A stretch of 64,000 nt of DNA, taken from sequence record OP312987.1, one strand, 5' to 3'. The DNA comes from Escherichia phage vB_EcoS_Uz-1. Each line of letters opens with the position of its first letter. The stretch's first letter is position 1. Below are positions 11,283 to 64,000 of this stretch, piece by piece. The notes below the pieces were generated by a model. That model saw only the letters and a program-made list of their open reading frames with translations. It made no database searches and had not been told where the DNA came from. Position numbers and translations under genes: made by a program.

Positions 11283-11379
11283 TATGTCTGGATGTACTCC
11301 ATCATACTAAGTATTATCTAAGAGTCATCTTATGATACGACCCTATTGGGGTTTCTAACTTTACAACTACGGTAATATT

Positions 11380-20916: not shown

Positions 20917-20987
20917 AGAATGACCCAATCTATCCTCACTGTAAGAAGGCACTCTATAAAGCTACTGGTGGTAAGCTCAATAAAGTA

Positions 20988-43586: not shown

Positions 43587-43903
43587 GAACCCGTCTTCGA
43601 TGATATTACTGAGTGACCTTTACCGAAACCAGATGTAGCCAACGCTATAGCGTAGATGTTTACCGGCAGGTCACCACGGTCTTTAGTTACGATGGTTGCA
43701 CCCATGCAGGATGCCATTTTAGCCAAGAAGTAGGCTACTTCGACACGGAAGAATCCCCGGTCATTGTTCTGGGTTTTATTGCAGAGCACATCTACGATTT
43801 CTTCAATCGCTGGATGGTGCACTACTCCGGTAAGGTCAATACTCATGATGGAAAATATCTCTCTCTTTGTTTGCAAATGGTCGCGACAGGGCAGTATAAA
43901 CAA
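43583..43903 (-). CDS. small hypothetical protein, possibly the N-terminal segment of the primase gene
   Basis: 106-aa ORF ending ATSGFGKGHS..., ATGA overlap with the primase ORF. Confidence 0.4.
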   Translation of the reverse strand: MFILPCRDHLQTKREIFSIMSIDLTGVVHHPAIEEIVDVLCNKTQNNDRGFFRVEVAYFLAKMASCMGATIVTKDRGDLPVNIYAIALATSGFGKGHSVISSKTGS

Positions 43904-45317: not shown

Positions 45318-45324
45318 AATTAGT

Positions 45325-45392
45325 TACTCGTCATGCAATAGCCATACAGCCAGGGCCAGTGATACATCATGGTTGTTGGTTATCTTCATTAG
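45325..45392 (-). repeat. duplicated 5' fragment of the exonuclease gene (direct repeat with 44757..44823)
   Basis: About 77% identical over 64 nt to the first 64 nt of the exonuclease gene, first 34 nt nearly identical; encodes MKITNNHDVSLALAVWLLHDE-stop versus MKLTNKHDVSLALAVWLLHDEYDY... Confidence 0.7.
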
Positions 45393-45865
45393 TAAGTAAT
45401 CCTGTATCTGTGAACCCAGTTCCACTTAATTTCACTTAGCTGATTGAAGTTATACGAGTAAATTTCATCTCGTTCATCTTTATAAACAATCTCAATGAAT
45501 GAAAATTCTTTAGTGAAGTGAGGTTTACCATTGTTTGTATGGTGCCAATAACTACCAACGGTATTTACATTCGTAGCAGGATCCGGAAATAACTCACTAG
45601 CTAACTTCTCTTTAGCGAGAATACGATTAGCGTAATGAACCAGCTTCTCAGCATCATACACCGAAGAGTTTCCTGGTTTACCATTACCCATACGGGCAGC
45701 AGCATTTCGCCATAGAGCCTTAAAGGCACAACCTTCATCGAAGGTCATGCCCAGTGCCTGGATAATATCCTCACACTCTGCTTGGTATGGCTCTTGCTCT
45801 TTCCGTTGGGGGTTCTTAACTGGTACTACATACCAGTTATTCAATCCACCGGAGAGCTTAGTCAT
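45389..45865 (-). CDS. hypothetical protein
   Basis: 158-aa ORF; its stop overlaps the ATG of the duplicated exonuclease fragment (TAATG). Confidence 0.55.
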   Translation of the reverse strand: MTKLSGGLNNWYVVPVKNPQRKEQEPYQAECEDIIQALGMTFDEGCAFKALWRNAAARMGNGKPGNSSVYDAEKLVHYANRILAKEKLASELFPDPATNVNTVGSYWHHTNNGKPHFTKEFSFIEIVYKDERDEIYSYNFNQLSEIKWNWVHRYRITY

Positions 45866-46170
45866 TATTCCCCCTTGGGAATCATGTTTGCCTGGAACTC
45901 TGGTTCAGACATCAGACCCAGGTTGTTAATGGACAGATAAACAATGTCTTTCAAATCAACCGAAGTGTCGAAACGCTGGTCCAGACTAATTTTAAGAGAG
46001 TGATTGGCACGGGCCAAATCTTTATAGGTCACATGAGGCTCGTCAGTGAGCAGCATTGTGTTCATAGTAAGCAGGGAGCCATCATCAGCTTTGGGAAGCT
46101 GGAAGATTACCTGTGCTGCTACCATCCAATGATATTTTCTGACAACGGTTTCTTTAGTACTTTTAGTCAT
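45865..46170 (-). CDS. hypothetical protein
   Basis: 101-aa ORF directly downstream of the DNA polymerase gene. Confidence 0.5.
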   Translation of the reverse strand: MTKSTKETVVRKYHWMVAAQVIFQLPKADDGSLLTMNTMLLTDEPHVTYKDLARANHSLKISLDQRFDTSVDLKDIVYLSINNLGLMSEPEFQANMIPKGE

Positions 46171-46661
46171 GCGAATGCCTTTTGAATTATTTGATGAACT
46201 TCATCTGGGGTAGCGTGATTTGGAATTTCAATCTCGTTAGCCCACGTTGGATAAAACAAGGATAGTTCCCCACCCAAACCAACTTCTGGATGAGCAATAT
46301 CAGGATGGTCTTGCCAGTTAACGGCTTCAACCAAGTGCTTGTTCGTATACTGTAAGGTATCCATGTTGTCACGGATCATGAAGTATTGGGCATCATGAAT
46401 GTGAATACAAGGACGGATATCTAACCTGAACTCACTGGTTCTGACTTTACGCATAAACTCTGAGCCAGCACGGTTATTAAGTAGACACCAGCTTTGACCT
46501 AATGCATTACCAGCAGTTCTGCCTTCAGCTTCTGCTTCATACGGAGTCTTACATGTCCCACGTAATACCTGAGCCAGTAAAGGAGTACGCACTCTTAAAC
46601 CAAATGCAGCAGTTACATAACCAGTCTTAGCAGCTTCGTCTAGCTTAGCCTGAACCCACAA
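46167..46661 (-). CDS. DNA polymerase family A, C-terminal fragment
   Basis: ...GYVTAAFGLRVRTP ... AEGRTAGNALGQS ... IHIHDAQYF resemble the Pol I C-terminal region and motif C; frame is open upstream to about 46739. Confidence 0.8.
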   Translation of the reverse strand: MWVQAKLDEAAKTGYVTAAFGLRVRTPLLAQVLRGTCKTPYEAEAEGRTAGNALGQSWCLLNNRAGSEFMRKVRTSEFRLDIRPCIHIHDAQYFMIRDNMDTLQYTNKHLVEAVNWQDHPDIAHPEVGLGGELSLFYPTWANEIEIPNHATPDEVHQIIQKAFA

Positions 46662-46669
46662 ATCACTAA

Positions 46670-47122
46670 CTACATAGAGATCGTGATAACGTTTCTCCGT
46701 AGTTTTAGCCTTCTCTTCGGAGAAGCCACAGTTTTCATTAAGCCCATGTAAGTACCACCATAGGTAAGCAGGAAGGTTGGAGCCTTCGAGTCACTACGTA
46801 ATGATTTGTACTTATGCTGAATGGAATTAATGGATTCTACTGTGTCTTCTATGTCTGGCATCTGCTCACCAAAATAAGCATATGCACGGAGACTGTGACC
46901 ATCATAGCCATCGGTATATACCTTAAGCTTCTGCGGGTCTTTAGTAGTTAAAGCTGAGATACGGTCTTCAAGGCTTGCAAAGTCCAGTCCACAAAATATC
47001 CAACCTGGTGGTGCTTCGAAGCATTTCTTAATCTTCTTGGCGTATTTGGAACCACTGGGGATGGTCTGTAGATTAGGCTCGGACGCTGAGAGACGTCCTG
47101 ATACTGTGCCTCCAAATTGAGG
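46670..47122 (-). CDS. DNA polymerase family A, middle fragment (motifs A and B)
   Basis: Hand translation of a second frame: PQFGGTVSGRLSASEPNLQTIPS ... CGLDFASLEDRISA ... KAPTFLLTYGGTYMGL; the ORF track shows only its last 63 codons (46670..46861). Confidence 0.7.
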   Translation of the reverse strand, partial: PQFGGTVSGRLSASEPNLQTIPSGSKYAKKIKKCFEAPPGWIFCGLDFASLEDRISALTTKDPQKLKVYTDGYDGHSLRAYAYFGEQMPDIEDTVESINSIQHKYKSLRSDSKAPTFLLTYGGTYMGLMKTVASPKRRLKLRRNVITISM

Positions 47123-48633
47123 TTACCGAACAGGTAGTGCCATCCATCTGGTCCAGGTTGTGCATTACGGAAAGCTGGGATGAATGAAGTGATGATCTTA
47201 TCCACCAGCTTATAGTCGATAAGTGCATTGAGCAGTTCCTTAACATCTTCACTCTGCGTATGTGTACGCAGTGCTTTAATAGTGTCACCGTCAGTAGCAG
47301 GTTGCTTGCTCTTAGTAAGACCAAGAACCGGTAAGCCGATGTAGTCAAATAACAATTTCTGTAATTGTGGACCAGAGTTAGGATTAAACTCTATGTCACA
47401 ATCAGCCAACGTTACCTGCTTCTTCTTAAGCTTGGCATTCTTATCGTCTACCCATTCCTGACGAAGCATCAGGGTGAAGTTCTTCATGAGCTTAGACTCA
47501 CGAATAGTTTTCAGAGCCTGGTTCCTGTCAGTTTCCATTTCTTCAGCTACTTGGTTAACGGTTTCCATATTCATGGGCATACCGGTTAACTGCATCTGAA
47601 TAATGTCTTCGCAGGCTGGTTTAAAGATGTTGTTATAAACATCTAGTTGGTTATCAGCTACCAGGGTATCCCAGTGTTTCTCGTAGGTGTACCAGGTACA
47701 CAAACCATCAATAAGGTTGTATCGTAACAGTTGCTCATTAGGAATGAGACGAATGTCTTTAATATCATCCTGAGCATAGTTACCAGCATACTCCTGAGCC
47801 TGCTCTTTTAGACTAAGGTGATTACCAGCACAACTGTTAGTAGCTAAATAAGTAATTAATTTAGTACAGTCCCAGTTACGCAGCATGATGTCCATGCCAT
47901 GCAGTAAGCCTCCAGTATCAATCAGGTTATCCATGAATAACTGATAAATAAGTATGTACACATCATAACTAATGTTGTGATACATCTGCCGTTGGGTGTA
48001 CTTAATGAAGAACTCACGGAGAAGATTTCGAACAATATCATTACGATTGATTCTCCCATAAGGTGCTTCAGTAGCTCCCCTAATTGGCTCGTAATCCACA
48101 TTAAAGGCTATGCCCTGTGTCTTACTCCAACAGAACGTAATTGTTCCTATACCTGCGTTATAGTGCTTTAAACCGAATGCCTCGATGTCTATAGCCAGAG
48201 GCTTATTCATCTCAAGCAACTGGTCTAGCCAGGCTTTAATCTTTTCTGGAGTATCTGGATAGGCTTCAAACTCAATGATTCCCTGACCTGGTTCAGCATA
48301 CTGCCCACGTATGTGGTTTAGTAATGCATCCATACCCTGAGCAATTTTGGCTCTCACTACAGGTGGGTCATAAAAGACCTGTCTGTAACTAGGCGTATAG
48401 ATAACTTTCTGTTTACCCCATACTGAATCACAAACATAGCCGAGATTAGCCTCTGCTTTAGCCTCTTTAGTCAGTATTTTGAAGTAATCAGAATCGGTGC
48501 AGATAATGTACTGGGTCTCTGCATCATCCAGTACTTGCTGCAATTCCTGCTTTATGAACTCCTTAATCTCTCTTGCTGGGGTCTTCTTCTTGCCCGGAGC
48601 AGAGTGAAGTTCAATAAAGATGAAGTCTTCCAT
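46948..48633 (-). CDS. DNA polymerase family A, N-terminal fragment with 3'-5' exonuclease motifs
   Basis: LAIDIEAFGL (Exo I-like) and HNISYDVY (Exo II-like) in a 561-aa ORF; authentic sequence ends near 47100; a strong SD plus ATG at 48670 joins this frame if the T3 run at 48658-48660 is one base longer. Confidence 0.8.
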   Translation of the reverse strand: MEDFIFIELHSAPGKKKTPAREIKEFIKQELQQVLDDAETQYIICTDSDYFKILTKEAKAEANLGYVCDSVWGKQKVIYTPSYRQVFYDPPVVRAKIAQGMDALLNHIRGQYAEPGQGIIEFEAYPDTPEKIKAWLDQLLEMNKPLAIDIEAFGLKHYNAGIGTITFCWSKTQGIAFNVDYEPIRGATEAPYGRINRNDIVRNLLREFFIKYTQRQMYHNISYDVYILIYQLFMDNLIDTGGLLHGMDIMLRNWDCTKLITYLATNSCAGNHLSLKEQAQEYAGNYAQDDIKDIRLIPNEQLLRYNLIDGLCTWYTYEKHWDTLVADNQLDVYNNIFKPACEDIIQMQLTGMPMNMETVNQVAEEMETDRNQALKTIRESKLMKNFTLMLRQEWVDDKNAKLKKKQVTLADCDIEFNPNSGPQLQKLLFDYIGLPVLGLTKSKQPATDGDTIKALRTHTQSEDVKELLNALIDYKLVDKIITSFIPAFRNAQPGPDGWHYLFGNLNLEAQYQDVSQRPSLIYRPSPVVPNTPRRLRNASKHHQVGYFVDWTLQALKTVSQL

Positions 48634-51480: not shown

Positions 51481-53529
51481 TTACTTAACGTGCTTTGACA
51501 GCTTAGTAGCCAATTTGCTCTCTTCTTCAGTCAGACCCATTGCAGCTGAAGACTTCTTAGCTGCACGCTTATAGTCTTGTAGGGCATGACCTTTCTGATA
51601 GTCAGAGATAGGACTATCTTCAGGATGTACGCAGATTATCATGGCATGTTTACCAGTAATGGCAGGCTTATATTTAGTGGGTAGAACGGTCTTAGCTTGC
51701 TTCACTGGTTTTGGTTTGCCGATGGGTTTAGCTGTGTAAGTTGTACGTACATCAGCAATCTTAGCCACTACATCGGAACCAACTCCTAAAGCAGCCCATG
51801 GCTTACGGGCCTTGCCTCGCATTTCCACAAGCAAATCAGCAGCAGCTAATTTATCTTCTGGGGTTGTTGCATTGAGGAACTCTTTGACCAGTTCCTGGAT
51901 TTGTTCTTTCACAGTAGGAGCCTTCTTAATAACGGGTTTAAGGTCAGTAGCCTTCACTGGTTCAGAAGCTACAGTTTCATTCAGTGACTCTTCCATATTC
52001 AGTGCTTCTTTATTAGCAACTGTACGGAATTGTTCTACAGAACCAGATGTGAGATTAGTATATTTGAGGTTAGTACCACGATGTCCACCAACCATAACAA
52101 GTGTGGTAGGTGAACTATGGTTCCCAACGATGGCATCATTAAGCAACTTCTTACCTACTTCTGTCTTAGACAGATAGATACCGTTGTTAACGTTGCAACG
52201 TTCCTCTTCCGGCAGTTCAGCAATAATGTGATATGCAGATACACGCATCTTATTAGTGCTGTACTGAGGAACAGCAAATACATCTTCTGGTGCTACTTTA
52301 CCAAGGATAGTTACGTTACCACCGAAGCTACGAATGTAGCTCATGGATGCTACATGCAGACCATTAGAACAGTCCTGGCGACGGTCAGGGTCTACCAGGT
52401 CTTCGCGTACCTGCACTTTACATCCTACCCATTGACGAATGTTGCCTGAGTGACAATCAACGAATACACGTTTACCATTCTCTAGACTTCTATACTTCAG
52501 ACGTTTCAGGAACAGGATTGAACCATCATCAGCAATAGGTAGCTCAGCAGTTTCCATGAACTTCATCAGGTCTTCAACTGAGTGTAGACGGTCTTTAATT
52601 ACTGGAGCCAGACGCTCAAGGAACTTAGTAAAGCCCTTGTAGTCTTTCAGTTGGGCAGACTGACGCAAGTGACGTTGCAGGTTCTCAACTCCAGGGATAA
52701 CCCCATCGTTGGTAACAGCAACAACCACTTCATCTTCCTTCACATCAGTGTGGAAGTTAGCGTCATCAGTACTAATAGCACCCAATGCAGCCAGTTTCTC
52801 AGAAGCAGCAGCCAGCTTATCCTGATTCGTAACTTTAACCTCTTCTACATAAGGCAGTGGAGTTTCATCGCGACTGGTAAATACAATGTGTACTCCTTTG
52901 ATATGTTTGGCTTGTTTAGCAAACTCACTCATTTCATCATCGGATACTGCACGAATTGCAATAGGCCATTCTTGCTTAAGAATGCTGTCAGTATGCTTAT
53001 AACTCCAACACAGTACATCATTAATAAAACGAACCAGTGCAGGATGGTTATGGTCCTTGTCCCAACCAGTAACCCACATCAGATTGTCACGTTTATCGTA
53101 ACAACCGTCTGCTACTGTTACTTCTGGTTCATTAGCCTGGACAGCCAGGAAGGTATCCATAGCTCTAGACACCAGCGTCTTAGTGGGATTTCCCAGCTTA
53201 ATATCTGAGACGATTCGGGCTGGTTGAGTACTTGTACCATCTTCGAAGAACTCTTTGAGTTTAGCCTTAGCTACCTTGAAGAAACGGACGAATCCGTTAG
53301 TGTTCTTCTCTGCTTCCAGATATTCAGTACGCAGGTTTACTTCTGGTGCAATGTTTACTTCTATCTGGTCTTTGGTAGTTCCCAGACCTTTGGTTTGTGC
53401 TTCAGATACAATACGAGCAACCCGTGGGTCGCTCTGAGGATATACAATCGTGGAGCCATCAGGCTTCCACAGTGTAAGGTTACGACTGTCAACTGCCAGT
53501 GCGATGATAGAAATCAGTTCGATTTTCAT
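51481..53529 (-). CDS. large hypothetical protein, rIIB-like candidate by position
   Basis: 682-aa ORF downstream of the rIIA-like gene; no motif verified. Confidence 0.4.
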   Translation of the reverse strand: MKIELISIIALAVDSRNLTLWKPDGSTIVYPQSDPRVARIVSEAQTKGLGTTKDQIEVNIAPEVNLRTEYLEAEKNTNGFVRFFKVAKAKLKEFFEDGTSTQPARIVSDIKLGNPTKTLVSRAMDTFLAVQANEPEVTVADGCYDKRDNLMWVTGWDKDHNHPALVRFINDVLCWSYKHTDSILKQEWPIAIRAVSDDEMSEFAKQAKHIKGVHIVFTSRDETPLPYVEEVKVTNQDKLAAASEKLAALGAISTDDANFHTDVKEDEVVVAVTNDGVIPGVENLQRHLRQSAQLKDYKGFTKFLERLAPVIKDRLHSVEDLMKFMETAELPIADDGSILFLKRLKYRSLENGKRVFVDCHSGNIRQWVGCKVQVREDLVDPDRRQDCSNGLHVASMSYIRSFGGNVTILGKVAPEDVFAVPQYSTNKMRVSAYHIIAELPEEERCNVNNGIYLSKTEVGKKLLNDAIVGNHSSPTTLVMVGGHRGTNLKYTNLTSGSVEQFRTVANKEALNMEESLNETVASEPVKATDLKPVIKKAPTVKEQIQELVKEFLNATTPEDKLAAADLLVEMRGKARKPWAALGVGSDVVAKIADVRTTYTAKPIGKPKPVKQAKTVLPTKYKPAITGKHAMIICVHPEDSPISDYQKGHALQDYKRAAKKSSAAMGLTEEESKLATKLSKHVK

Positions 53530-53533
53530 CAGA

Positions 53534-53779
53534 TTAGTTACCTTTCAGTTTATTTAGACGATTACGGTAGAGGGACTTAAACCCAGGAATATCCTCTGGA
53601 TTCTTCTTAAGGTGTTTGACCAAACTACCTAAGTCCAGCGTCTGTAGGATGTCATTTTTATTCCAGCTATAACTGAATAATTCTTTGTAATCATTAAGTA
53701 TTTTAAAGTACTTATGATTACGCGGATTAGTCATTATTGCATATGGCTCTAAGTCATCCACTGACTTAATACAACCCAT
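53534..53779 (-). CDS. hypothetical protein
   Basis: 81-aa ORF between the rIIA-like and 682-aa genes. Confidence 0.45.
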   Translation of the reverse strand: MGCIKSVDDLEPYAIMTNPRNHKYFKILNDYKELFSYSWNKNDILQTLDLGSLVKHLKKNPEDIPGFKSLYRNRLNKLKGN

Positions 53780-53880
53780 TTCAACAAGTTTTTCTTTGTT
53801 GTCGTGTGGTCGATTCCGTAGAAAGTCATATGCCCATTCATATTCTGGTTTAAAAATCAGATTCTGTAATGGTTTGAAGG

Positions 53881-55263
53881 TTAGACCAGTATGTCTAGGA
53901 TTTCCCAGTATTCCCTGTCATCCAGTCCTACGTATTCCAGAATACCAATACGGTGTTCAGTAACATATTTCTTGAAGCCTTTACTGGTAATAACTGGCAT
54001 CAGCTCCATAAAGCGAACATCATCAATGTGGATAGCACCTCTCCGTTTGGCCTTGTTAGCTTCGATTTGATTACGGCAGACAACAGTCTCTGCTCTCATC
54101 TCATCAGATAACTCATACCATTTCCACATGGTTCCAATTCGAGCAGTTACTGGGCTACCTGAACCAACCTGATTGGCTAGTACGTAGTACTTAGGTTGCT
54201 CTACTTCAACGAAACCAGACTTATCATGGCGACTTGGGTCTGCAAATTCCTTCTGAATATAAGGCTTTGGTTCCCAATCCCCATTTTTATTCCGTATTTG
54301 GGTAGCACCAAGAACTGCATTCAATGAAATCAGAGAATTAGTTTTACCTCCTGCCTTGGTTTTATTGGCAGCGATTGTCTTAGACCGTTTCTCAGCAGCT
54401 ATCTTAGCTTTCTCTCTACGGAAGTTAGTTGGTTTGTCCCACTCATTATATTGAGTAAGGTCGATTACCCGATAACCCATAGCAGTGAACTTAGCCACAG
54501 CTTCTTCTGCTGCACCCTTCTTAGGTCCAACGACGTGAACAAAAGCTGTACGCTCCAGGTCACCTCGATCGTACTCAGGGAAGTACGAGAAAGAGTCTGC
54601 ACAGTCAGACAAACGTCGGGTAACTACAACGTTTTTGGTAGTGAATATGCCAATACTTTGGTGGGAGTTATTGTATATCCTAAAGTAGTCAGTAAGTTTA
54701 CCTTTTACCAAGTCAACACGGTTACCTTGATTCATTATGTAACCAGACCACTTAATACCAGAGGTTTTCAAAGCAGCCAGCTGAGGTAAGTGCAGATGGC
54801 GATATACTAATTCCGAGAATGGGGAGTATGTACTTTCTTCACGAGTATCCTTAAGAGCACGCATAGCCTTACCATACAGTTTCTTAAGACCTGCGTATTC
54901 AGGACGAGCTAATAATGCCTTATTGGATAAATTACGCCAGTGCTTGATGTAATGCTTACGTTGCTTAGCCCACAAACTAGAGGACATATAGCGTTGAACA
55001 GTTCTGTCTGTAACAGCACCCAGGAATGATGGATACTCCCAGAAGCGAGTAGAGGATTTAGAAGCATATTCTTCAACCTGCTTAATGGCTTCAGGAATCT
55101 TAGCCTTAATCTCTTTCTCCATACGGTCTACTAAATCTACACATAGAGTAGTAATACCATCGTCGGTTAACTTCTGGTTAGACAGCGTTTCTCGACTAGG
55201 AGCAATAGCTAAAGTGTCTGGTGCAGCCTGAACTACTAGATTAGAAGCACCAATAATATTCAT
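53881..55263 (-). CDS. rIIA: rIIA-like protein, C-terminal fragment
   Basis: 460-aa ORF starting 17 nt after the GHKL-ATPase ORF in another frame with no SD; its frame is open ~20 codons upstream into the other ORF's end. Confidence 0.55.
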   Translation of the reverse strand: MNIIGASNLVVQAAPDTLAIAPSRETLSNQKLTDDGITTLCVDLVDRMEKEIKAKIPEAIKQVEEYASKSSTRFWEYPSFLGAVTDRTVQRYMSSSLWAKQRKHYIKHWRNLSNKALLARPEYAGLKKLYGKAMRALKDTREESTYSPFSELVYRHLHLPQLAALKTSGIKWSGYIMNQGNRVDLVKGKLTDYFRIYNNSHQSIGIFTTKNVVVTRRLSDCADSFSYFPEYDRGDLERTAFVHVVGPKKGAAEEAVAKFTAMGYRVIDLTQYNEWDKPTNFRREKAKIAAEKRSKTIAANKTKAGGKTNSLISLNAVLGATQIRNKNGDWEPKPYIQKEFADPSRHDKSGFVEVEQPKYYVLANQVGSGSPVTARIGTMWKWYELSDEMRAETVVCRNQIEANKAKRRGAIHIDDVRFMELMPVITSKGFKKYVTEHRIGILEYVGLDDREYWEILDILV

Positions 55264-55280
55264 GAAGTTGAGGATAAGGC

Positions 55281-56099
55281 CTACAGCTTCTTCACTAGCT
55301 GGGCTGGATACAATTGGTACATTACATTACCGTAGCGAACGTATATGTTACTGCTACCCATATAGCCTTGATACCATCTATCAGACATATCATATGAACC
55401 AGGTTCAAATGGCATGCCTAGTGTATCCAGTAGAGTGTAGTCGCCTTGTTGAATACTATTACTCTCGTCTGTTCTAATGAGTTTGGGAGTACTTAGCTCA
55501 GCTTTAATTTCACCGTTAAACACAATTGATTTGATGTAATGAATAAAGGTATTTAAATCATGTTTGCCTAACTGGAATTTAACTTCCAGACCAGATTCCT
55601 CAGTAGGAATACCAGTAATAATAGGAACAATACCAGGCTTACCATCATTCTCAATTGCAGCCTTAGCTACGTTATATACAGACATCTTCCCTTGGTTCCA
55701 TGATGTAACCTGGAAGCTATCTGTATAAGCGAATGGGGATTTACATCCCAGACCAAAGCCACCAGTAACACTACTGTTGGACTTCTTGGTAGATGCACCA
55801 TAGACACCATAAATGGAGCCAATGAGTTCATCTTGGATACCGTTACCGAAGTCACGGAAGGTAATAAAGTTGTCAGTATCAATGGTAATACGGATAGGAG
55901 TATCAGTCTTACCTGCTTCAATATGGGCATCCCAACTGTTACAGATAGTTTCACGGACTACTGCCAGAGTAGGGTTGTTATACAAGGAAGTACTTAATAC
56001 ATGAAAGAATGCCGGGTCATCAGAGATGCCAAAGGCGATTGCTTCTTTGCCACCCAGTGTCGCTGAAGTGGCTGATTGATTGGTATCTGCAACTAACAT
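55281..56099 (-). CDS. rIIA: rIIA-like protein, N-terminal GHKL (Bergerat-fold) ATPase fragment
   Basis: ExxxNxxDA-type VRETICNSWDAH, DxGxG-type FRDFGNGI and Gly-rich VTGGFGLGCKSPF motifs, as in GyrB/Hsp90/MutL-type ATPase domains found at rIIA N-termini. Confidence 0.65.
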   Translation of the reverse strand: MLVADTNQSATSATLGGKEAIAFGISDDPAFFHVLSTSLYNNPTLAVVRETICNSWDAHIEAGKTDTPIRITIDTDNFITFRDFGNGIQDELIGSIYGVYGASTKKSNSSVTGGFGLGCKSPFAYTDSFQVTSWNQGKMSVYNVAKAAIENDGKPGIVPIITGIPTEESGLEVKFQLGKHDLNTFIHYIKSIVFNGEIKAELSTPKLIRTDESNSIQQGDYTLLDTLGMPFEPGSYDMSDRWYQGYMGSSNIYVRYGNVMYQLYPAQLVKKL

Positions 56100-56126
56100 T
56101 TATTTACTCTCCAGTTTAAATGTTGC

Positions 56127-56375
56127 TTACATTAGAACTTGTTTACACTTATCAAAAATAGCTTTACGAAGTTCAGCTTCTTCCCGTGGTTCATCATTAG
56201 GATGGTGACCTACAGGACTATTTTGAAAAGCATTCATTAGGAATAAGACCTGATACTCGGTTAAACCATTAATCTGAATGCTATACGTTTTCTCTGAGGC
56301 GATATTTACATTAGCCATTGCGTTTACCTGCCATTGCTTGTAATACAAACACAGCCATATCTGATGCCATGTCAT
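56127..56375 (-). CDS. small hypothetical protein
   Basis: ORF track 82 aa; probable start at internal Met (MANVNIAS...) near 56318 because of overlap with the upstream ORF. Confidence 0.4.
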   Translation of the reverse strand: MTWHQIWLCLYYKQWQVNAMANVNIASEKTYSIQINGLTEYQVLFLMNAFQNSPVGHHPNDEPREEAELRKAIFDKCKQVLM

Positions 56376-56685
56376 CTGTTATATCGTTGACCGTTCCATA
56401 TGGTAGTGGGCCGTTCTCTTCCCAGTTATCTAACGTGTTTTGTACTTCAGCTAAACCAGCCTGAATCATTTCCTTGCTTGGTTCCAGCCATAACTTACGT
56501 TCCTCTGCTAGTGCAGCGATGCATATGCATAGAGAGGCAATGTTAGCTGGACAAGCAGCAATATCACCAGTTACTGCAATCTCACTGAGTGGGACAGCCT
56601 TACCGGTTTTACTATGAATTACTTCAGGGTTAATCATGAATTTGCTCCAGGTTATGGGCAGGAATAGGGAAGCATGGATAGTCAC
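56311..56685 (-). CDS. hypothetical protein
   Basis: 124-aa ORF. Confidence 0.45.
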   Translation of the reverse strand: MTIHASLFLPITWSKFMINPEVIHSKTGKAVPLSEIAVTGDIAACPANIASLCICIAALAEERKLWLEPSKEMIQAGLAEVQNTLDNWEENGPLPYGTVNDITDDMASDMAVFVLQAMAGKRNG

Positions 56686-56842
56686 CGGTAGGGTCCAGTG
56701 TTACTGACACATGCAGTGTATTTGTCATTTGGGTTAGCATCTGAGCAGCATTGAAATCATCCTGGATACAGGCATATACAATGTCGCCCTTCTCACCCTC
56801 ACACATTACGGGTGTGTCTTTGATACGGTATTTAGCAGGCAT
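56630..56842 (-). CDS. small hypothetical protein
   Basis: 70-aa ORF immediately downstream of a minus-strand terminator. Confidence 0.4.
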   Translation of the reverse strand: MPAKYRIKDTPVMCEGEKGDIVYACIQDDFNAAQMLTQMTNTLHVSVTLDPTGDYPCFPIPAHNLEQIHD

Positions 56843-56867
56843 ATGCCCTCCTGAAAGAGTTAATTGA

Positions 56868-56897
56868 AACCAAAAAAGACCTCCCGGAGGAGGTCTT
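56868..56897 (-). terminator. intrinsic terminator
   Basis: AGACCTCC-CGGA-GGAGGTCT hairpin followed on the minus strand by TTTTTTGG. Confidence 0.7.
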
Positions 56898-56901
56898 AGG
56901 T

Positions 56902-57117
56902 TTACTTACGATTTTGTTCTACAAATCGTATCATTTGTTTTTTCACTTCTTCTTGCTCACGAATTGCTTCGTAGTCACGAGCAAAGTAGTAAACACACCA
57001 TAAACCAATCTCGCTTACAAAGAACAGAATACTAGCTCGAATGAACTGCATATCTGTTTCTACGACAAAGGCAACTTTGTATGCGTAGGTCAGTGTTAGT
57101 AGGGTACTAATTAGCAT
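56902..57117 (-). CDS. small membrane protein
   Basis: 71 aa with two hydrophobic segments. Confidence 0.5.
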   Translation of the reverse strand: MLISTLLTLTYAYKVAFVVETDMQFIRASILFFVSEIGLWCVYYFARDYEAIREQEEVKKQMIRFVEQNRK

Positions 57118-57136
57118 TGCGTATAGAGCTAGTTTT

Positions 57137-58081
57137 TCATTCTGTAATTGTTTCTCCGGGGATTAGTTTACGGAATTGGATGAAATCCAGTAAGTTGCCA
57201 GAATACAGCTTACCTTCACGGTCCATAGATGTAACACCCTGTTCCCATGTTAATGGGTTCTGGTTGTTCACATACTTATCACCAACAGTCATAGGAGTTG
57301 CCTGGTGTTCGGTAGGGGATGCATGAATAGGTTGGTTTTCAACTAACTTAGCAAACAATCCTAAGTCCTCTTCAATAGTAGATGGACGGCCTTCGAAATT
57401 GTTGTAAGAAGCACGAGCACAACGAGCAGCACTTACTTTAAGAAGTAAGCCATACACTTCTTCACGACTTGGCTCATCACGAGTAATTCGCTGATGTTTG
57501 CAGTAATTATAAGCCCCGACACGATCAATATGAGCAATATACGGTAAATGCCATTCCCCTTGTGGGAGTGCTCTCGTAGTGCTTTCATTGTGTGCCTTAC
57601 GCATTGCTTGAGCCAGTTCACGAATCTCTGGTTGAGCGTCCTCATGGTCACGCAATCCATAGAAGTTAGTCCAGCTAGTTGAAGTTACCACTACACGGAT
57701 ATGTGTGAATGGTTCCAGAATACGGTTAACAATCTGCTTATGTACTTGACCACGACGAAGCATTTCTGCATAGGTAGCAGCACTGGACGCAGCCTGATTC
57801 CAGATAAAGATTGCATCTACGTTGGTCTTCGGACTGAGTTCCTCAAATGCCTGCATACCCTTCTGGTTCTTACCCCAGTGACTTGGCATCACTGGTTCAT
57901 TACGAACCTGTTCGATGAACTTAGAAGTAGGGATAGCACGACTACTTGAAGCATTTCGGTTGAATACACGGTGAGTCATAAACTCACTGTGGATGAATCG
58001 GGGGTAAACCAATTCAAAGGTAGTAATACGAGTTCCTGTTTCTGGGTGAACGGAATCTGCAATGACAGTTGCCTTAATCAT
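57137..58081 (-). CDS. thyX: ThyX-like (flavin-dependent thymidylate synthase family) protein, tentative
   Basis: Segment TTFELVYPRFIHSEFMTHRVFNRNASSSR resembles the ThyX core around the RHR...S.R signature as recalled, with T in place of the first R; 314 aa. ThyA motifs absent. Confidence 0.45.
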   Translation of the reverse strand: MIKATVIADSVHPETGTRITTFELVYPRFIHSEFMTHRVFNRNASSSRAIPTSKFIEQVRNEPVMPSHWGKNQKGMQAFEELSPKTNVDAIFIWNQAASSAATYAEMLRRGQVHKQIVNRILEPFTHIRVVVTSTSWTNFYGLRDHEDAQPEIRELAQAMRKAHNESTTRALPQGEWHLPYIAHIDRVGAYNYCKHQRITRDEPSREEVYGLLLKVSAARCARASYNNFEGRPSTIEEDLGLFAKLVENQPIHASPTEHQATPMTVGDKYVNNQNPLTWEQGVTSMDREGKLYSGNLLDFIQFRKLIPGETITE

Positions 58082-59555: not shown

Positions 59556-60062
59556 TTAATTAAGCCGTCTAGCAGCTACTGGTTTATCTTCCTGGTTCTG
59601 ATACTTGCCATTGTAATTAGCAGGTTCTTGAACCAGATGAAATAATACTTGAGCTATCCCAGCACCAGCCGGGATATGCAATTTCTTACGACCATGATAG
59701 ACCAGTTCGAGGGTAAGATACCCTTTCCATCCTGGTTCTATTACGGTATTGAACACTGATAATGCACGTCTTGCCCACGTAGACTTATCGTGAACGATGG
59801 CTACACAGGACGGGGACATATTAAACTTCTCAATTGCTGAGGCCAAGGCGAACTTACCGAGATGGCGTGATACTTGATTTCCATCAACGACTTTCACCAT
59901 TGGAATCAACCCAAATAAGCGATAGAAGGTAATATCCTGTTTGATACGAATATCATAACCAGCTTCACCTAATCCGTAGCTTACACCATGCTTAGATACC
60001 TTACGGTCTGGGACATCCAGCAGCTGAGATGAACGGTATAGAGAATTACCATTAACAACCAT
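59556..60062 (-). CDS. dCTP deaminase-like protein (dUTPase superfamily)
   Basis: AGYDIRI and VIEPGWKGYLTLELVYHG resemble dCTP deaminase/dUTPase motifs; 168 aa. Confidence 0.55.
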   Translation of the reverse strand: MVVNGNSLYRSSQLLDVPDRKVSKHGVSYGLGEAGYDIRIKQDITFYRLFGLIPMVKVVDGNQVSRHLGKFALASAIEKFNMSPSCVAIVHDKSTWARRALSVFNTVIEPGWKGYLTLELVYHGRKKLHIPAGAGIAQVLFHLVQEPANYNGKYQNQEDKPVAARRLN

Positions 60063-60580
60063 TATTTCATTCCTTTAGGGATATGAACTACCTCCCCAAA
60101 AGGTACGGTAGCATTGGGATTATTCAGAACACACCAGATGATAGGAATATCAAATGGCAATTCTTCCATTGGACGAACATACATATCGGAGAATATGATT
60201 GCAGCGGTTGGCTTATTCTTAATAATCCAATCACGTACTGGTTCCAGGTTTGTACCACCACGACCTGTAATCTTAATCTCTTCAAATGTATCTTCTTCAG
60301 TGATGTCTATCTCTTCTTGGATAATATCGTCGAAGGTAATTAGGGACATCTTCTTAGGATTGAACTGGCTTTTAACGTAGGCAACCTCTGAGTTAAATCG
60401 CAGAGAGTCTGCACTACTAATAGAACCAGATACATCTTCAAAGTAGGCCAGGTGTCGTAAACGTCCTTCATCATCTTCCATAGAAGGTAGATAGATATCA
60501 GTAAAACGACGGTTAGGTCTGGCCCATGTATAACGTGATTCATCAATGTCGGTAAAAAGTTCATCAGAACTTCTTGCCAT
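60062..60580 (-). CDS. VWA-like domain fragment (C-terminal part of a metallopeptidase-VWA protein)
   Basis: MIDAS-like EDVSGSIS and ITGRGGT motifs; upstream region continues in other frames toward the metallopeptidase ORF. Confidence 0.55.
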   Translation of the reverse strand: MARSSDELFTDIDESRYTWARPNRRFTDIYLPSMEDDEGRLRHLAYFEDVSGSISSADSLRFNSEVAYVKSQFNPKKMSLITFDDIIQEEIDITEEDTFEEIKITGRGGTNLEPVRDWIIKNKPTAAIIFSDMYVRPMEELPFDIPIIWCVLNNPNATVPFGEVVHIPKGMK

Positions 60581-60634
60581 GGAACCACTGGTTTAAGAAA
60601 TTGGGTAATAACCTCTTCCATACGACCAGCACCC

Positions 60635-61234
60635 TTACCTGGCATCTGTCCACCAGCCATTTTCTGGCTTTGCATTGCACGTACTACGTTGTTGACAACA
60701 GCACCCTGGGACTGCCCGGAGTGGGGATTTCATGTCGCCAGCAAGACCTGCTCCAGCACCCCCTGACGGCTTCTGCCTTTTCTGAGGGTTCTTCATCAAG
60801 TCATCGTAGATATCTTCTTCGACCCATCCTTTATATTGAGGGTCTTTGCAAATACCTTTGTCGATACCAGTGAATTTGTAACCATCTTCTTCTAACTGAA
60901 GGTTAATGAAGTGGTCACATGCCTGGTTCCAGACTTCTGGGTCACGGCTTCCACGACGGATGTCATGTAGATATGCCACATGCCAGAGTTCGTGCATTAA
61001 CACTGTTTCTCTTGCGTCTGGACACATCCAGATAAAGAAATCTGGATTGAAATGGAGTTCTATCCCATCGGTACATGCAGTGGGACAATCCTCGCGTTTC
61101 CACGAGAACTTAAGACTACATAGTAATGAACCAAAGAACGCAGCGCTTCGACCTAGGAAAGCCTGAGCTTGAATACGATCATATTCACGCATGAGTTGTT
61201 CATCTGTGAGACTATGCGTAGGTATACTGTTCAT
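60635..61234 (-). CDS. zinc metallopeptidase-like fragment (HExxH), N-terminal part of metallopeptidase-VWA protein
   Basis: HELWHVAYLH motif; C-terminal ~40 aa of the ORF look out of frame (Cys/Gln-rich). Confidence 0.55.
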   Translation of the reverse strand: MNSIPTHSLTDEQLMREYDRIQAQAFLGRSAAFFGSLLCSLKFSWKREDCPTACTDGIELHFNPDFFIWMCPDARETVLMHELWHVAYLHDIRRGSRDPEVWNQACDHFINLQLEEDGYKFTGIDKGICKDPQYKGWVEEDIYDDLMKNPQKRQKPSGGAGAGLAGDMKSPLRAVPGCCCQQRSTCNAKPENGWWTDAR

Positions 61235-61712
61235 TAGGGTGCTCCATGATTGGGGTGATAGCCATACAGTTTTTCAGCCGCTTTTCTGGCGTCTATGGCA
61301 TCTTGCTTGTCTGCAAAAGTGCCCAAACTTACCAGACGTGTTCCATCAGATATAGCTGCATACCAGATGGAATCACGCTTGTGCCAGTACACACCAGTAA
61401 CACCACTGGAATTAGTTACCCGTTTCTTTTGGTTTCTGGTGTTAGTTCTGCTGTCTACTAATCTAAAGTTACTTAGAAGGTTATTAACCCTATTGTGGTC
61501 TAGGTGATCAATCTGCATACCTTTCGGGATAGGTCCATTGTGCATTTCCCATATGACACGGTGCACTTTGTAACTTTTGCCCTTATAGTTGAAGCATAAA
61601 TAACCATCGCTATTTAGATTACCTACCTTTTTCCAGCAATGCCTCTGGAGGCTACTGTAACTTTCCAGAATAGCTCCCCATTTATGTAAACGAGTATGTC
61701 ATTCCAGTTCAT
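61234..61712 (-). CDS. HNH homing endonuclease with AP2-like domain, frame-shifted in this assembly
   Basis: ORF track 61234..61566 has HNH motif IDHLDHNRVNNLLSNFRLVDSRTN and AP2-like tail; the N-terminal ~50 aa (MNWNDILVYINGELFWKV...) lie upstream in another frame from ATG 61712, joined if an A5 run gains one base. Confidence 0.75.
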
Positions 61713-61719
61713 GTTGTGA

Positions 61720-62220
61720 TTATCCGTGAATGTAGCGGGAGATGTTAGCAGCAGCCTTACGCCATTCAGGGGTAGCCTGAAGTTCTGGCAATGCTCTGCC
61801 TACTGTACGAAAGTACAGAATCTTATGAGTGAACGTTTTAAAGCGTTCAATGTACTGAAGAACATCAGCGAAGTTTTCCTCAGTAGTTTTGTTAGCCAGA
61901 TGGTTAACGGTAGCCCAACACAGGTTATTATCTTCCGGTAGTGTACAGCCCATAGGGTCTTTGACTACCTTATCAATCGTAATGATACGATTGTACACCT
62001 GTGTAAATTGAACAAACTCTGTAGCCTTACCAGCAGTAACGTGTCCTGCATAGTAGATAGAATCTTCATCAGGCAGAGCACCTTCAGGACGGTTCTTGAG
62101 GTCTTTGTTAACAAAGTCCCAGGTACGAGGGCAACAGAACGTTTTGTTCTTATGTGCTGGGTCGAAGTCATGCAGATAACCGGGGTTAGCATGTAAGAAT
62201 GCAACCAGACGTTCATCCAT
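61720..62220 (-). CDS. MoxR-like AAA+ ATPase, C-terminal fragment
   Basis: 166-aa ORF overlapping the 3' part of the ATPase ORF in another frame; protein-like sequence. Confidence 0.5.
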   Translation of the reverse strand: MDERLVAFLHANPGYLHDFDPAHKNKTFCCPRTWDFVNKDLKNRPEGALPDEDSIYYAGHVTAGKATEFVQFTQVYNRIITIDKVVKDPMGCTLPEDNNLCWATVNHLANKTTEENFADVLQYIERFKTFTHKILYFRTVGRALPELQATPEWRKAAANISRYIHG

Positions 62221-62771
62221 TGTTGTGGAATCATTACGTCTTCAACAAAGATGTCGAAGTTAAGTTCCATTTCGAAGTGGACAACACGGGACTGCATTGC
62301 AGTACCCAGTGGGTTAACGATGGCACGGTCAGTAGCTTTGTTACCAGCACAGATAATCATCACATTAGGATGAAGTTTTTTCTGACCAGTCATACGGTCT
62401 AGAATCAGTTTATATGCAGCAGCTATTACTTCTTTGCGAGCAGATGGGAACTCATCAAGGAATAAGAGCCAGCCATTATATCCTTCCGGTATTTTATCCC
62501 CTTCAATTGGGAATAAGTCAGCGAATGGAATAAACTCTGCACGGTCACCATTACGGAATGGTAAGCCAGAAAGGTCTTCCGGGGCAGAAGTTGACAGACG
62601 ATGGTCTATCAACTTCATACCAAATTCTTCTGCAATAGAACGAATGATTGCAGATTTACCCATGCCAGGTGATGAAGTCAGGAACGGTACGTTACCTGCT
62701 TTCAAAGCACGGATAATAAAGTTACGAGCTTGACGTGAATTACATACGGTCAAGGAGTCAATGCTTGCCAT
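61965..62771 (-). CDS. MoxR-like AAA+ ATPase, N-terminal part
   Basis: Walker A SSPGMGKSA, Walker B LLFLDEFPSA, ICAGN sensor-like motif; last ~60 aa look out of frame. Confidence 0.7.
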   Translation of the reverse strand: MASIDSLTVCNSRQARNFIIRALKAGNVPFLTSSPGMGKSAIIRSIAEEFGMKLIDHRLSTSAPEDLSGLPFRNGDRAEFIPFADLFPIEGDKIPEGYNGWLLFLDEFPSARKEVIAAAYKLILDRMTGQKKLHPNVMIICAGNKATDRAIVNPLGTAMQSRVVHFEMELNFDIFVEDVMIPQQWMNVWLHSYMLTPVICMTSTQHIRTKRSVALVPGTLLTKTSRTVLKVLCLMKILSTMQDTLLLVRLQSLFNLHRCTIVSLRLIR

Positions 62772-62805
62772 TTACTTACTCTCCTAAAGCTAATGGAATT
62801 ACTGA

Positions 62806-63135
62806 TTAAGATTTAGTGCAGGGATAGGCCTTGTGTACTGAGTACACAACAATTTGAGATGTATTCTTCATCTTGAGGATTGCAGAGTCATAAATAACCA
62901 CTTTGGCAATCTTAGGCAGAATGACCGAATATTTAATACCTTCTGGAACACAGTTATCTGTGCTCTCGATGTAAGAGATCATACTGCCCATGAAGAAACC
63001 TTGTCCGAACGCATCACGAGTGTCATCCAGGTAAGCCTGAGCACCTTCCAGAATTGGTTCTGGTTCAATTGCTTGTGCACTTGGGGCTAAAGCTATCAGT
63101 GCAGCTACTGCAATACCTTTAAGTAAAGTTTTCAT
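62806..63135 (-). CDS. secreted/periplasmic hypothetical protein
   Basis: N-terminal signal-peptide-like MKTLLKGIAVAALIALAPSAQA; 109 aa. Confidence 0.55.
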   Translation of the reverse strand: MKTLLKGIAVAALIALAPSAQAIEPEPILEGAQAYLDDTRDAFGQGFFMGSMISYIESTDNCVPEGIKYSVILPKIAKVVIYDSAILKMKNTSQIVVYSVHKAYPCTKS

Positions 63136-63321
63136 TTAGTTACCTTTCATTTCATTGAGTTTAAGTACACCGATAGGGGTTAATGACCACCCAAGACCAG
63201 CATTGAACTGAACTAAGCCCAGCTTCTTAAGAGACTGTGCGGTTTTGTTATTACGGTTGCTGGTGGCAGAACCACCTTGAACCATACGAAGGAAGATTGC
63301 TTGGGACTGAGTTAATTTCAA
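63136..63321 (-). CDS. small hypothetical protein
   Basis: 61-aa ORF abutting neighbours in a compact operon. Confidence 0.4.
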   Translation of the reverse strand: MKLTQSQAIFLRMVQGGSATSNRNNKTAQSLKKLGLVQFNAGLGWSLTPIGVLKLNEMKGN

Positions 63322-63527
63322 AGGTAATATCCTTCCAGGTTTATTGGTGTTACAAATGTATTTGCTGATAGATAGAATGATTTACCAGTTTCTACAGCAA
63401 CAGCAGCAGGTTTGCCTTCAGGTAGGTGAATCTTTAAACACACTGTCTGGTTATAAATAAAACCATTAGCAGGCTCTACATCACCGAAAGTTACTTCATT
63501 GTTCTCAGAACGATTTGTTACTTTCAC
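63318..63527 (-). CDS. small hypothetical protein
   Basis: 69-aa ORF, 4-nt overlap with neighbours. Confidence 0.45.
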   Translation of the reverse strand: MKVTNRSENNEVTFGDVEPANGFIYNQTVCLKIHLPEGKPAAVAVETGKSFYLSANTFVTPINLEGYYL

Positions 63528-63784
63528 TCATCTTCTCCTTCATCCGGTAGCGGTGATAAATCTACACCTAAATGCTTCAGGCGTTTCTCTAAGTCATCTA
63601 CCTTATTTTGATAAAATGACAGTAGCTCAGGTAGTATTCTTGTACGAGCTTGCGGTCCTAAATCCTTATCGTAAAAGGATACTTTCACCATATGTGGAGC
63701 TTTCTTCAAACTAGCTAATTGCTGTCGGTTGTCGTTGTATTCTTCATACAATTTCTCAACCAAATGTAGATTGTGGATATTCAT
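63524..63784 (-). CDS. hypothetical protein
   Basis: 86-aa ORF, 4-nt overlap with neighbours. Confidence 0.5.
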   Translation of the reverse strand: MNIHNLHLVEKLYEEYNDNRQQLASLKKAPHMVKVSFYDKDLGPQARTRILPELLSFYQNKVDDLEKRLKHLGVDLSPLPDEGEDE

Positions 63785-63969
63785 TTCTTCTCCGGTACGA
63801 ACTGCATTACACAGCTTTGATTACGAGGGATATTAAGTTCACATTCATGCTTGAGGGTTTGTGTTACAGAGTTTGGAGTAGAACCAAAATAGGTATTGGA
63901 GATAGCTACGAATCCTGCACCTATTAAACCACCTAGTAAGAATGAGAAGAATGCAATCTCTTTATACAT
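63781..63969 (-). CDS. small membrane protein
   Basis: 62 aa with N-terminal hydrophobic segment IAFFSFLLGGLIGAGFVAI. Confidence 0.45.
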   Translation of the reverse strand: MYKEIAFFSFLLGGLIGAGFVAISNTYFGSTPNSVTQTLKHECELNIPRNQSCVMQFVPEKK

Positions 63970-64000
63970 TTCCTGGCTCCAGATGTAGAAAACCCAGTCA

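Follow-up and report, generated by a model that had tools for sequence, protein, structure and literature searches.

Intact N4-like gp24 and gp25 genes very probably underlie a fragmented ATPase and metallopeptidase-VWA region in the record of Escherichia phage vB_EcoS_Uz-1

Results

Fragmentation of the genes in the sequence record

A region that looks broken in the record of Escherichia phage vB_EcoS_Uz-1 (OP312987.1) very probably comprises three unbroken genes from a G7C-like (Gamaleyavirus, N4-like) coliphage, and comparison with related records suggests that its broken look is due to sequence-record errors alone. The two outer genes, which encode an ATPase and a metallopeptidase-VWA protein, are orthologues of phage N4 gp24 and gp25, a core middle-gene pair of the Schitoviridae. 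All positions refer to the window, which is the whole 64,000-nucleotide stretch that was analyzed. Proteins of the window were exact matches to the vB_EcoS_Uz-1 entries UWJ04355.1, UWJ04356.1, and UWJ04360.1 in GenBank. A preliminary description of this DNA had reported a MoxR-type ATPase and a metallopeptidase-VWA partner, both fragmented and separated by an HNH insertion. The ORF pieces and motifs that it described were all recovered on the minus strand. The genes, their ORF pieces, and the breaks are as follows:

61720..62771, minus strand: gp24-like gene for an AAA+ ATPase, MoxR-class by fold, 350 aa after one base is restored
61965-62771, minus strand: N-terminal ORF piece of the ATPase (ORF listing)
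61720-62220, minus strand: C-terminal ORF piece of the ATPase (ORF listing)
62217..62218: frameshift site of the ATPase gene, plus-strand CC; CCC in PD38 and IME11
61234..61712, minus strand: predicted homing endonuclease gene (HNH_3 + AP2), free-standing, repaired product of 159 aa
61234-61566, minus strand: raw ORF of the HNH gene (ORF listing)
61628..61632: frameshift site of the HNH gene, plus-strand T5; T6 in PD38
60062..61234, minus strand: gp25-like gene for one 391-aa protein (three bases restored), predicted zincin-like metallopeptidase domain (DUF2201_N) + VWA domain (DUF2201)
60635-61234, minus strand: metallopeptidase ORF piece, HELWH at 60980-60994
60340-60675, minus strand: middle ORF piece, real protein in 60556-60675 only
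60062-60580, minus strand: VWA ORF piece (ORF listing)
60723..60726: gp25-like frameshift site 1, plus-strand G4; G5 in PD38
60715..60717: gp25-like frameshift site 2, plus-strand C3; C4 in PD38
60554..60558: gp25-like frameshift site 3, plus-strand A5; A6 in PD38

Restoring the five bases gave intact proteins of 350, 159, and 391 aa, sizes that are found in hundreds of relatives. The genes for the 350 aa and 391 aa proteins were unbroken in PD38, IME11, and G7C, and, besides the vB_EcoS_Uz-1 record, only that of phage Bp4 (KJ135004.2) contained the breaks. Clustering at 90% placed the partner protein in a group of 799 members and, among those listed, all except one were 391 aa long. The partner had been described as spread over three frames. 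Its pieces were confirmed, but the gene carries three single-base breaks and, therefore, the first and last pieces share a frame. The HNH gene is itself frameshifted, in the T run at 61628-61632, which the preliminary description had missed.

The vB_EcoS_Uz-1 and Bp4 records are both 72,583 bp long, and alignment of the window with Bp4 gave 3,822 substitutions and 0 indels across 64 kb. Since the two are of equal length and without indels between them, they are not independent. Apparently, the vB_EcoS_Uz-1 record is a consensus made by substitutions alone on a Bp4 template. Between Bp4 and its near-twin PD38, in turn, there were 3 substitutions and 39 indels. The base was missing from Bp4 in all 39, and 38 of them were in runs of at least 2 bases. 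The window contained 34 of the 39 sites, the ATPase-HNH-gp25 region contained 5 of the 39, and some sites were in intergenic DNA. The fragmentation of the ATPase, HNH, and gp25-like genes is, on this comparison of deposited records rather than of raw reads from Uz-1 or Bp4, almost certainly an artifact. The five frameshifts would be single-base under-calls in homopolymer runs that first arose in the Bp4 record and passed into the vB_EcoS_Uz-1 record through the use of Bp4 as a template. The DNA polymerase, primase, rIIA, gp51, and gp53 genes are also split in the Bp4 annotation, and the splits of the first three are, by the same comparison, attributable to this class of error.

It is very improbable that the frameshifts are genuine and that gp24, gp25, and the HNH gene are pseudogenes in decay in this phage. 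The breaks do stand in the deposited record and are common to two GenBank records, but those records, as noted above, are not independent. PD38, only 3 substitutions away from Bp4, has none of the 39 deletions, and the same class of deletion hits the DNA polymerase and primase, which are indispensable to a plaque-forming lytic phage. Both gp24 and gp25 are also core genes of the family. Furthermore, there was purifying selection on codons past the breaks in the repaired frame. Differences between this frame and PD38 were mostly at third codon positions, also past the breaks, with synonymous differences in 23 codons and non-synonymous differences in 6 within ATPase codons 186-350, and in 22 and 7, respectively, within VWA codons 227-391.

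Another possible explanation is programmed slippage, either ribosomal or transcriptional, which would yield full-length proteins from a truly frameshifted gene. Every break is in a homopolymer run, the usual type of slippery sequence. Nevertheless, we consider this exceedingly unlikely: relatives at 92-99% identity have in-frame versions, some of the runs are only CC or CCC, one gene would require three close-set shifts, and there are 39 such sites genome-wide, intergenic DNA included. Programmed frameshifting and true pseudogenization were both rejected, given the intact relatives, the non-independent records, and the 39 genome-wide sites. The best explanation of the fragmentation is a set of five homopolymer under-calls that the vB_EcoS_Uz-1 record took over from that of Bp4.

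The proposed families were in agreement with Pfam searches of the raw fragments, which gave AAA (8e-6), DUF2201_N (1.2e-35 and 4.7e-7), the VWA-like DUF2201 (4e-34), and HNH_3 (1e-16). None of the three repaired proteins had a match in NCBIfam. PADLOC gave no match and, thus, no tie to known defense systems.

The gp24-like ATPase

The Walker A, Walker B, and ICAGN motifs of the ATPase were located as expected, and their key residues were invariant in 40 homologues:

62652..62672, minus strand: Walker A/P-loop SPGMGKS; G38, K39, and S40 invariant
62451..62468, minus strand: Walker B LLFLDE; D106 and E107 invariant
62340..62354, minus strand: sensor-1 strand ICAGN; A142, G143, and N144 invariant

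PHROG 1297, "ATPase," covered the full length of the repaired protein at 9e-133. In Pfam, the sole model past threshold was the generic AAA (PF00004), at 26 bits vs 21.2. The cutoffs of the AAA_5 (15.5 bits vs 22) and bpMoxR (13.2 bits vs 27) models were not reached and, therefore, the MoxR assignment rests on fold.

Structure models were built on two orthologues, P0002, which shares 97% identity with the repaired ATPase, and the gp25-like P0138. For the P0002 model (pLDDT 88), the best Foldseek matches in the PDB were NorQ (9qhd, 9qh4) and CbbQ (6l1q, 5c3c), with E values of 3e-8 to 1e-6. The best-superposed chains were 9qhg_E, 9qh4_A, 6l1q_A, and 5c3c_A, with target TM values of 0.6-0.67. 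Dynein AAA modules ranked after NorQ and CbbQ, and the matches to all three were at E ~1e-7. Searching the PDB with a sequence profile of the ATPase found Midasin at 4e-4, and the single-sequence search gave a weak Midasin match alone. The AF2 model had two short strands (72-74 and 77-79) between beta2 and beta3, in an insert of low pLDDT (59), and another short strand (131-133) ahead of the sensor-1 strand. The sequence of this putative helix-2 insert was strongly conserved among the homologues. The modeled fold, with NorQ and CbbQ as best matches, identifies the gp24-like protein as a predicted MoxR-class AAA+ ATPase, as the preliminary description had suggested.

The gp25-like metallopeptidase-VWA protein

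The partner gene lies directly downstream of the ATPase gene, with a gap of 7 nt in IME11. Conservation of its motifs was scored in 38 sequences that were 47-86% identical to the first of them, P0138:

60965..60994, minus strand: predicted zinc-binding motif HELWHVAYLH (HExxH + downstream His); H81, E82, and H85 invariant, H90 at least 90% conserved (38 homologues)
60416..60436, minus strand: MIDAS motif DxSGS (DVSGSIS); D268, S270, G271, and S272 invariant
60251..60265, minus strand: MIDAS threonine loop GRGGT; G328 and T329 invariant
60182..60199, minus strand: MIDAS aspartate strand IIFSDM; D351 invariant

Two Pfam models passed threshold with the repaired protein, DUF2201_N at residues 17-253 (192.5 bits) followed by DUF2201 at residues 263-386 (116.3 bits). 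The protein has a VWA fold and a complete MIDAS motif (DxSxS...T...D). Foldseek of the gp25 model returned VWA matches only. A single-sequence search of the PDB with gp25 found no match, and the profile search found one marginal integrin I-domain match alone. The claim of a metallopeptidase-VWA partner held: by its domain matches and motifs, the gp25-like product is predicted to be one protein in which a zincin-like HExxH domain (DUF2201_N) is fused to a MIDAS-bearing VWA domain. We also observed that this protein is widely mislabeled "HNH endonuclease" in PHROGs and RefSeq.

The HNH-AP2 gene in the spacer

The repaired HNH protein matched HNH_3 in Pfam at 1.4e-17 (63.5 bits vs a cutoff of 24.8) and PHROG 99 at 4.5e-56. 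Its AP2 match (7.8e-5, 23.3 bits) was under the cutoff of 33.3. The gene starts at the ATG at 61712-61710, 7 nt past the ATPase stop codon, and its own stop codon shares 1 nt with the ATG of the gp25-like gene. An HNH gene does lie between the two genes, as had been proposed, but it fills the intergenic spacer and interrupts neither neighbor. It is probably a selfish element, with a putative homing endonuclease as its product, lodged in a 7-nt spacer.

At this site the HNH gene was present in Bp4, PD38, and G7C and absent from IME11, where the genes are 7 nt apart. The G7C gene, gp24.1, is homologous (58% aa identity) and occupies the same intergenic site. At the DNA level the allele was rare: beyond Bp4 and PD38, it matched only Moonfish (84% identity). 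Free-standing phage HNH genes such as the TLS phage gene EndZ, to which the G7C annotation refers, are alike in their predicted HNH_3 and AP2-type module, their intergenic site, and their patchy presence among close relatives. Eight blocks of the window had zero divergence from Bp4, among them 5902-11543, 61200-61722, which is the HNH segment, and a block from 62503 onward. Natural recombination, instead of reference fill-in, could in part account for these blocks. Because the HNH segment of the record matches the Bp4 template at every base (100% identity), the presence of the gene in the actual Uz-1 phage, as opposed to its record, is unproven.

Distribution and gene order

Related genomes were checked for the gene pair, which was found in IME11, PD38, G7C, and a 55%-identical contig, all with the order gp24-gp25-gp26. 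At 55% identity, the synteny of ATPase, DUF2201 protein, deaminase, and ThyX was maintained. The conserved downstream neighbor in the window is as follows:

59556..60062, minus strand: dCTP deaminase (gp26-like), by Pfam DCD (4.6e-16) and annotation in relatives

The RefSeq notes on Bp4 read "similar to YP_950502.1 gp24 / YP_950503.1 gp25." N4 gp24 (AAA+ ATPase) and gp25 (vWFA-superfamily protein), and gp24, gp24.1, and gp25 of G7C, are orthologous, in unchanged order and beside the same neighbors (dCTP deaminase gp26, ThyX gp30). Only the record differs from these, through its five single-base deletions, and its HNH allele is an uncommon one. Relatives of the partner protein were found in 736 phage records. 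Distant relatives were found by tblastn in phages of 137-440 kb, and relatives also occur in jumbo and rV5-like phages. The pair is, therefore, recurrent in phages, as the preliminary description had it, but it is not obscure, since the core gene list of N4-like viruses includes gp24 and gp25 (PMC7650795). Both are middle-gene transcripts in N4 (PMC4193335). A literature search found no experimental work on what gp24 or gp25 does.

Discussion

The pair resembles NorQ-NorD and CbbQ-CbbO, in which a MoxR AAA+ protein and a VWA protein act as a remodeling chaperone, although sequence identity is just 15-19%. Compared to NorQ and CbbQ, the phage ATPase has an additional C-terminal helical domain of ~160 aa without a Pfam match, and in the phage partner a predicted zincin-like peptidase domain replaces the N-terminal domains of NorD and CbbO. 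The phage pair, unlike those systems, has no known metalloenzyme client. The T4-like (group 2.2) jumbo phages have the same two-gene architecture, in which a MoxR ATPase is paired with a vWA protein that has a metallopeptidase at its N terminus (Iyer et al. 2021, PMC7824862). That pair is distant (22-32% identity) and has another genomic context, and its role in assembly is a proposal.

By analogy with MoxR-VWA systems, gp24-gp25 is most likely an ATP-driven remodeling and protease machine that would choose its target through the MIDAS site. Synthesis of the two proteins would fall in the middle phase of infection, that of DNA metabolism. A gp24 hexamer would grip the gp25 VWA domain with pore loops formed by the conserved helix-2 insert, and the gp25 MIDAS metal site would catch an acidic residue of the target protein. 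The target would be remodeled by ATP-driven twisting or pulling, and the fused metallopeptidase domain of gp25 would then cleave it. A "finger-in-pore" twisting model has been described for NorQ-NorD (PMC13036017). That the phage pair remodels and cleaves one particular protein, of the host or of the phage, in the middle (replication) phase is a possibility that we put forward tentatively.

A second reading, which we regard as rather doubtful, is that the pair serves virion assembly as a chaperone and protease instead of acting in mid-infection remodeling or takeover. Iyer et al. propose such a role for the jumbo phage pair and, according to a citation within that paper, tail assembly of Acidianus two-tailed virus reportedly needs a MoxR-vWA pair (PMC7824862). 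The relatives of gp25 in jumbo and rV5-like phages also fit this role. However, the N4-like pair is on the early/middle strand amid nucleotide-metabolism genes (dCTP deaminase, ThyX), outside the late structural block, and N4 gp24 and gp25 have middle transcripts (PMC4193335), strand and timing with which an assembly role is still compatible.

Metal-cofactor insertion, as by NorQD, CbbQO, or CobST, with an HExxH domain that binds metal without cleavage, seems improbable. Many MoxR-VWA systems do insert metals (PMC13036017), and the nearest solved structures are NorQ-NorD and CbbQ. On the other hand, no metalloenzyme client was apparent among the nearby genes. In zincins the glutamate of HExxH serves as the catalytic base, and its invariance throughout the family points to hydrolysis.

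The gene pair was already known, and what is described here is a database problem and not new biology. The Bp4 record has 39 homopolymer deletions, which were apparently copied into the Uz-1 record along with the template sequence. Therefore, neither record is a reliable basis for gene counts, "split gene" calls, or claims of pseudogenes. The "HNH endonuclease" label on the metallopeptidase-VWA protein can likewise mislead annotation pipelines. As already known, gp24-gp25 is an uncharacterized core module of the Schitoviridae. If the tentative reading of the pair as a MIDAS-targeted protease is true, this module would be a host-takeover or replication-licensing device and not a virion-assembly chaperone.

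Identity of the ATPase and its partner

All the ORF pieces named in the preliminary description were found on the minus strand at 60062-62771, and the motifs it reported were all at the expected positions, as listed below.

Motifs of the ATPase gene and the gp25-like partner gene
62652-62672, minus strand, Walker A, ATPase gene
62451-62468, minus strand, Walker B, ATPase gene
62340-62354, minus strand, ICAGN, ATPase gene
60980-60994, minus strand, HELWH, gp25-like gene
60416-60436, minus strand, DVSGSIS, gp25-like gene

Pfam assigned the raw N-terminal piece of the ATPase to AAA, two raw partner fragments to DUF2201_N and one to DUF2201 (VWA-like), and the raw HNH ORF to HNH_3 and AP2. The genes had been correctly identified. 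The region has its matches in G7C-like coliphages (Gamaleyavirus, Schitoviridae), with phage Bp4 as the top match at identical coordinates. RefSeq notes on Bp4 describe the pieces as homologues of N4 gp24 and gp25. The core panproteome table for N4-like viruses (PMC7650795) lists both gp24, an AAA+ ATPase, and gp25, which are reported as middle-gene transcripts without a known function (PMC4193335, PMC2784036). Relatives of the partner were found in 736 phage records, covering N4-like phages from many hosts as well as jumbo and rV5-like phages, and the gene order ATPase, DUF2201 protein, deaminase, ThyX is kept at 55% identity. The pairing is thus recurrent, as first proposed, and the gp24-gp25 module is an already known core gene pair.

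The assignment of the ATPase to the MoxR type is supported by fold. The structure model of an intact, 97% identical orthologue (pLDDT 88) had the MoxR-class proteins NorQ and CbbQ as its top PDB matches, followed by dynein AAA modules, and the sequence profile matched Midasin (E 4e-4), but the repaired protein did not reach the Pfam AAA_5 and bpMoxR models. Membership of the MoxR class therefore rests on the modelled fold, the conserved motifs and the adjoining VWA partner. The C-terminal helical domain (about 160 aa, residues about 186-350, 61720-62220) has no counterpart in the NorQ/CbbQ core and gave no Pfam match at E values up to 10. It is conserved and modelled at a pLDDT of about 90, with an invariant F..CCPRTW motif.

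PHROG 1314 and the RefSeq entries of many N4-like phages, Bp4 orf66 included, call the metallopeptidase-VWA protein (60062-61234) an 'HNH endonuclease'. By Pfam it lacks an HNH domain, its motifs being HExxH and MIDAS, and this label appears to be a propagated misannotation. Separately, a 153-kb Mesorhizobium MAG contig (SAJN01000019.1) holds an N4-like block of ATPase, 84-aa ORF, DUF2201 protein, dCMP deaminase and ThyX next to bacterial-looking genes (LysR regulator, NmrA, glycosyltransferase). The contig could be chimeric or could carry an N4-like element within a bacterial genome.

The frameshifts as a probable artefact of the record

The genes had been described as fragmented. Bp4 and its near-twin PD38, members of one species, are separated by 3 substitutions only, against 39 indels. 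The base was absent from Bp4 in all 39, of which 38 lie in runs of at least two identical bases (34 of them in runs of at least three). One-directional homopolymer losses of this kind are typical of sequencing under-calls, not of evolution. Five of the indel sites fall within the target region.

Under-call sites relative to PD38
60554-60558, plus strand, A5 for A6, gp25-like gene
60715-60717, plus strand, C3 for C4, gp25-like gene
60723-60726, plus strand, G4 for G5, gp25-like gene
61628-61632, plus strand, T5 for T6, HNH gene
62217-62218, plus strand, CC for CCC, ATPase gene

The corresponding ORFs are unbroken in PD38 (350, 159-187 and 391 aa), as are the ATPase and VWA genes in the relatives IME11 and G7C. 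The 90%-identity cluster of the 199-aa partner fragment has 799 members; of those listed, all are 391 aa long except one. Restoring the five bases gave continuous proteins, and the DUF2201_N match of the repaired partner spans the former breaks (model positions 3-270 of 271, E 1.5e-56). Differences from PD38 at first, second and third codon positions numbered 9/4/42 in the repaired ATPase and 13/4/61 in the repaired partner. Downstream of the breaks, differing codons were 23 synonymous and 6 non-synonymous in the ATPase, and 22 and 7 in the partner. The excess at third positions in the repaired frames indicates that selection acted on intact reading frames. The Bp4 annotation has its DNA polymerase, primase, rIIA, gp51 and gp53 split by the same type of error, and the window has the same genes in pieces.

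Other genes split into two or three ORFs
46167-48633, DNA polymerase
41694-43726, primase
53534-56099, rIIA
19780-22433, gp53-like
22903-24862, gp51-like

Single-base homopolymer deletions relative to PD38 account for these splits, with 46736, 47114, 43608, 53888, 55318, 20882 and 23558-24010 among the sites. Splits in genes such as these would be intolerable for a lytic phage that forms plaques, which argues for artefact. Together, the under-calls in Bp4, the intact relatives and the selection on the repaired frames indicate that the fragmentation almost certainly belongs to the record and not to the biology.

Probable dependence of the Uz-1 record on Bp4

The accession OP312987.1 is given for vB_EcoS_Uz-1 in PMC11927229, and the fragment proteins of the window exactly match GenBank entries of this phage. 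The Uz-1 and Bp4 records are equal in length (72,583 bp). A per-position comparison of the window with Bp4 (NC_024142.2) found 3,822 differing bases in 64,000 and no indels, with collinearity throughout. The differences form a mosaic in which divergence of about 2-15% per kb alternates with eight zero-divergence blocks.

Zero-divergence blocks between the window and Bp4
5902-11543 (tail-fibre region)
35698-36318
37465-38250
44774-45610
53267-55679
56116-57142
61200-61722 (exactly the HNH segment)
62503-64000

Despite a divergence of about 6% between Uz-1 and Bp4, every one of the Bp4 deletions recurs in Uz-1, which adds no indels. This is most simply explained by a substitution-only consensus on the Bp4 template, and the record resembles a reference-guided consensus filled in from its template. 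Therefore, it gives no independent support for the frameshifts. At the 5' end of the gp25-like gene, 61101-61200 has 19 mismatches to Bp4 in its 100 nt, a density three- to fourfold the local average, and adjoins the zero-divergence HNH block. This stretch could mark the edge of the fill-in, or it could be a variable homing-site and co-conversion tract. Although the name vB_EcoS_Uz-1 points to siphovirus morphology, the genome is that of an N4-like podovirus (Schitoviridae, Gamaleyavirus).

HNH elements at the locus

The HNH gene was said to interrupt the pair. Its ATG (61712-61710) lies 7 nt past the ATPase stop codon, and its stop codon shares one base with the ATG of the gp25-like gene, so it fills the intergenic spacer and cuts neither gene. 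IME11 lacks it, with its two genes 7 nt apart, and in G7C the same position is occupied by gp24.1, an HNH gene with 58% identity. These features mark it as a free-standing homing endonuclease gene; intergenic selfish elements of this type are already known. At the DNA level the allele was found only in Bp4 and PD38, plus Moonfish at 84% identity. The segment in the window is 100% identical to Bp4, homopolymer error included, and may be template sequence rather than the real Uz-1 genome.

In phage PW8 (2883-3750 of the compared locus), the ATPase gene is itself cut after residue 67 (…SAPEDL / SGLPFRNGD…), within the conserved helix-2 insert, by an insertion of about 870 nt with a different HNH ORF. 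The insertion matched the group I intron model RF00028 on the gene strand over its full length but below threshold (25.6 bits, E 3.5e-4). A similar split in phage U1G (2714-3652 of its locus) is annotated 'phage intron'. The PW8 insertion is probably an HNH-bearing group I intron, so the locus would host two kinds of HNH elements.

Possible function of the pair

In solved MoxR-VWA systems, the VWA domain inserts a finger into the pore of the ATPase hexamer, where helix-2-insert residues grip it. The partner is twisted and stretched as ATP is hydrolysed, which remodels a client bound near the MIDAS site (PMC13036017). The insert between beta2 and beta3 of the phage ATPase is strongly conserved, and the MIDAS site of the gp25-like partner is complete, as is an invariant, putatively catalytic HExxH motif. 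By analogy, these features make a remodelling and protease machine driven by ATP our preferred reading, with a target that would be chosen through the MIDAS site of the partner. Another proposal is that the pair serves virion assembly, the role put forward by Iyer et al. for an analogous jumbo-phage pair (PMC7824862). However, the position of gp24-gp25 among middle and nucleotide-metabolism genes weakly favours an earlier role. No experiments on the function of the pair were found in the literature.

Both the gene pair and the type of HNH element are already known. The main use of the finding beyond this known biology is as a warning about the Uz-1 and Bp4 database records.
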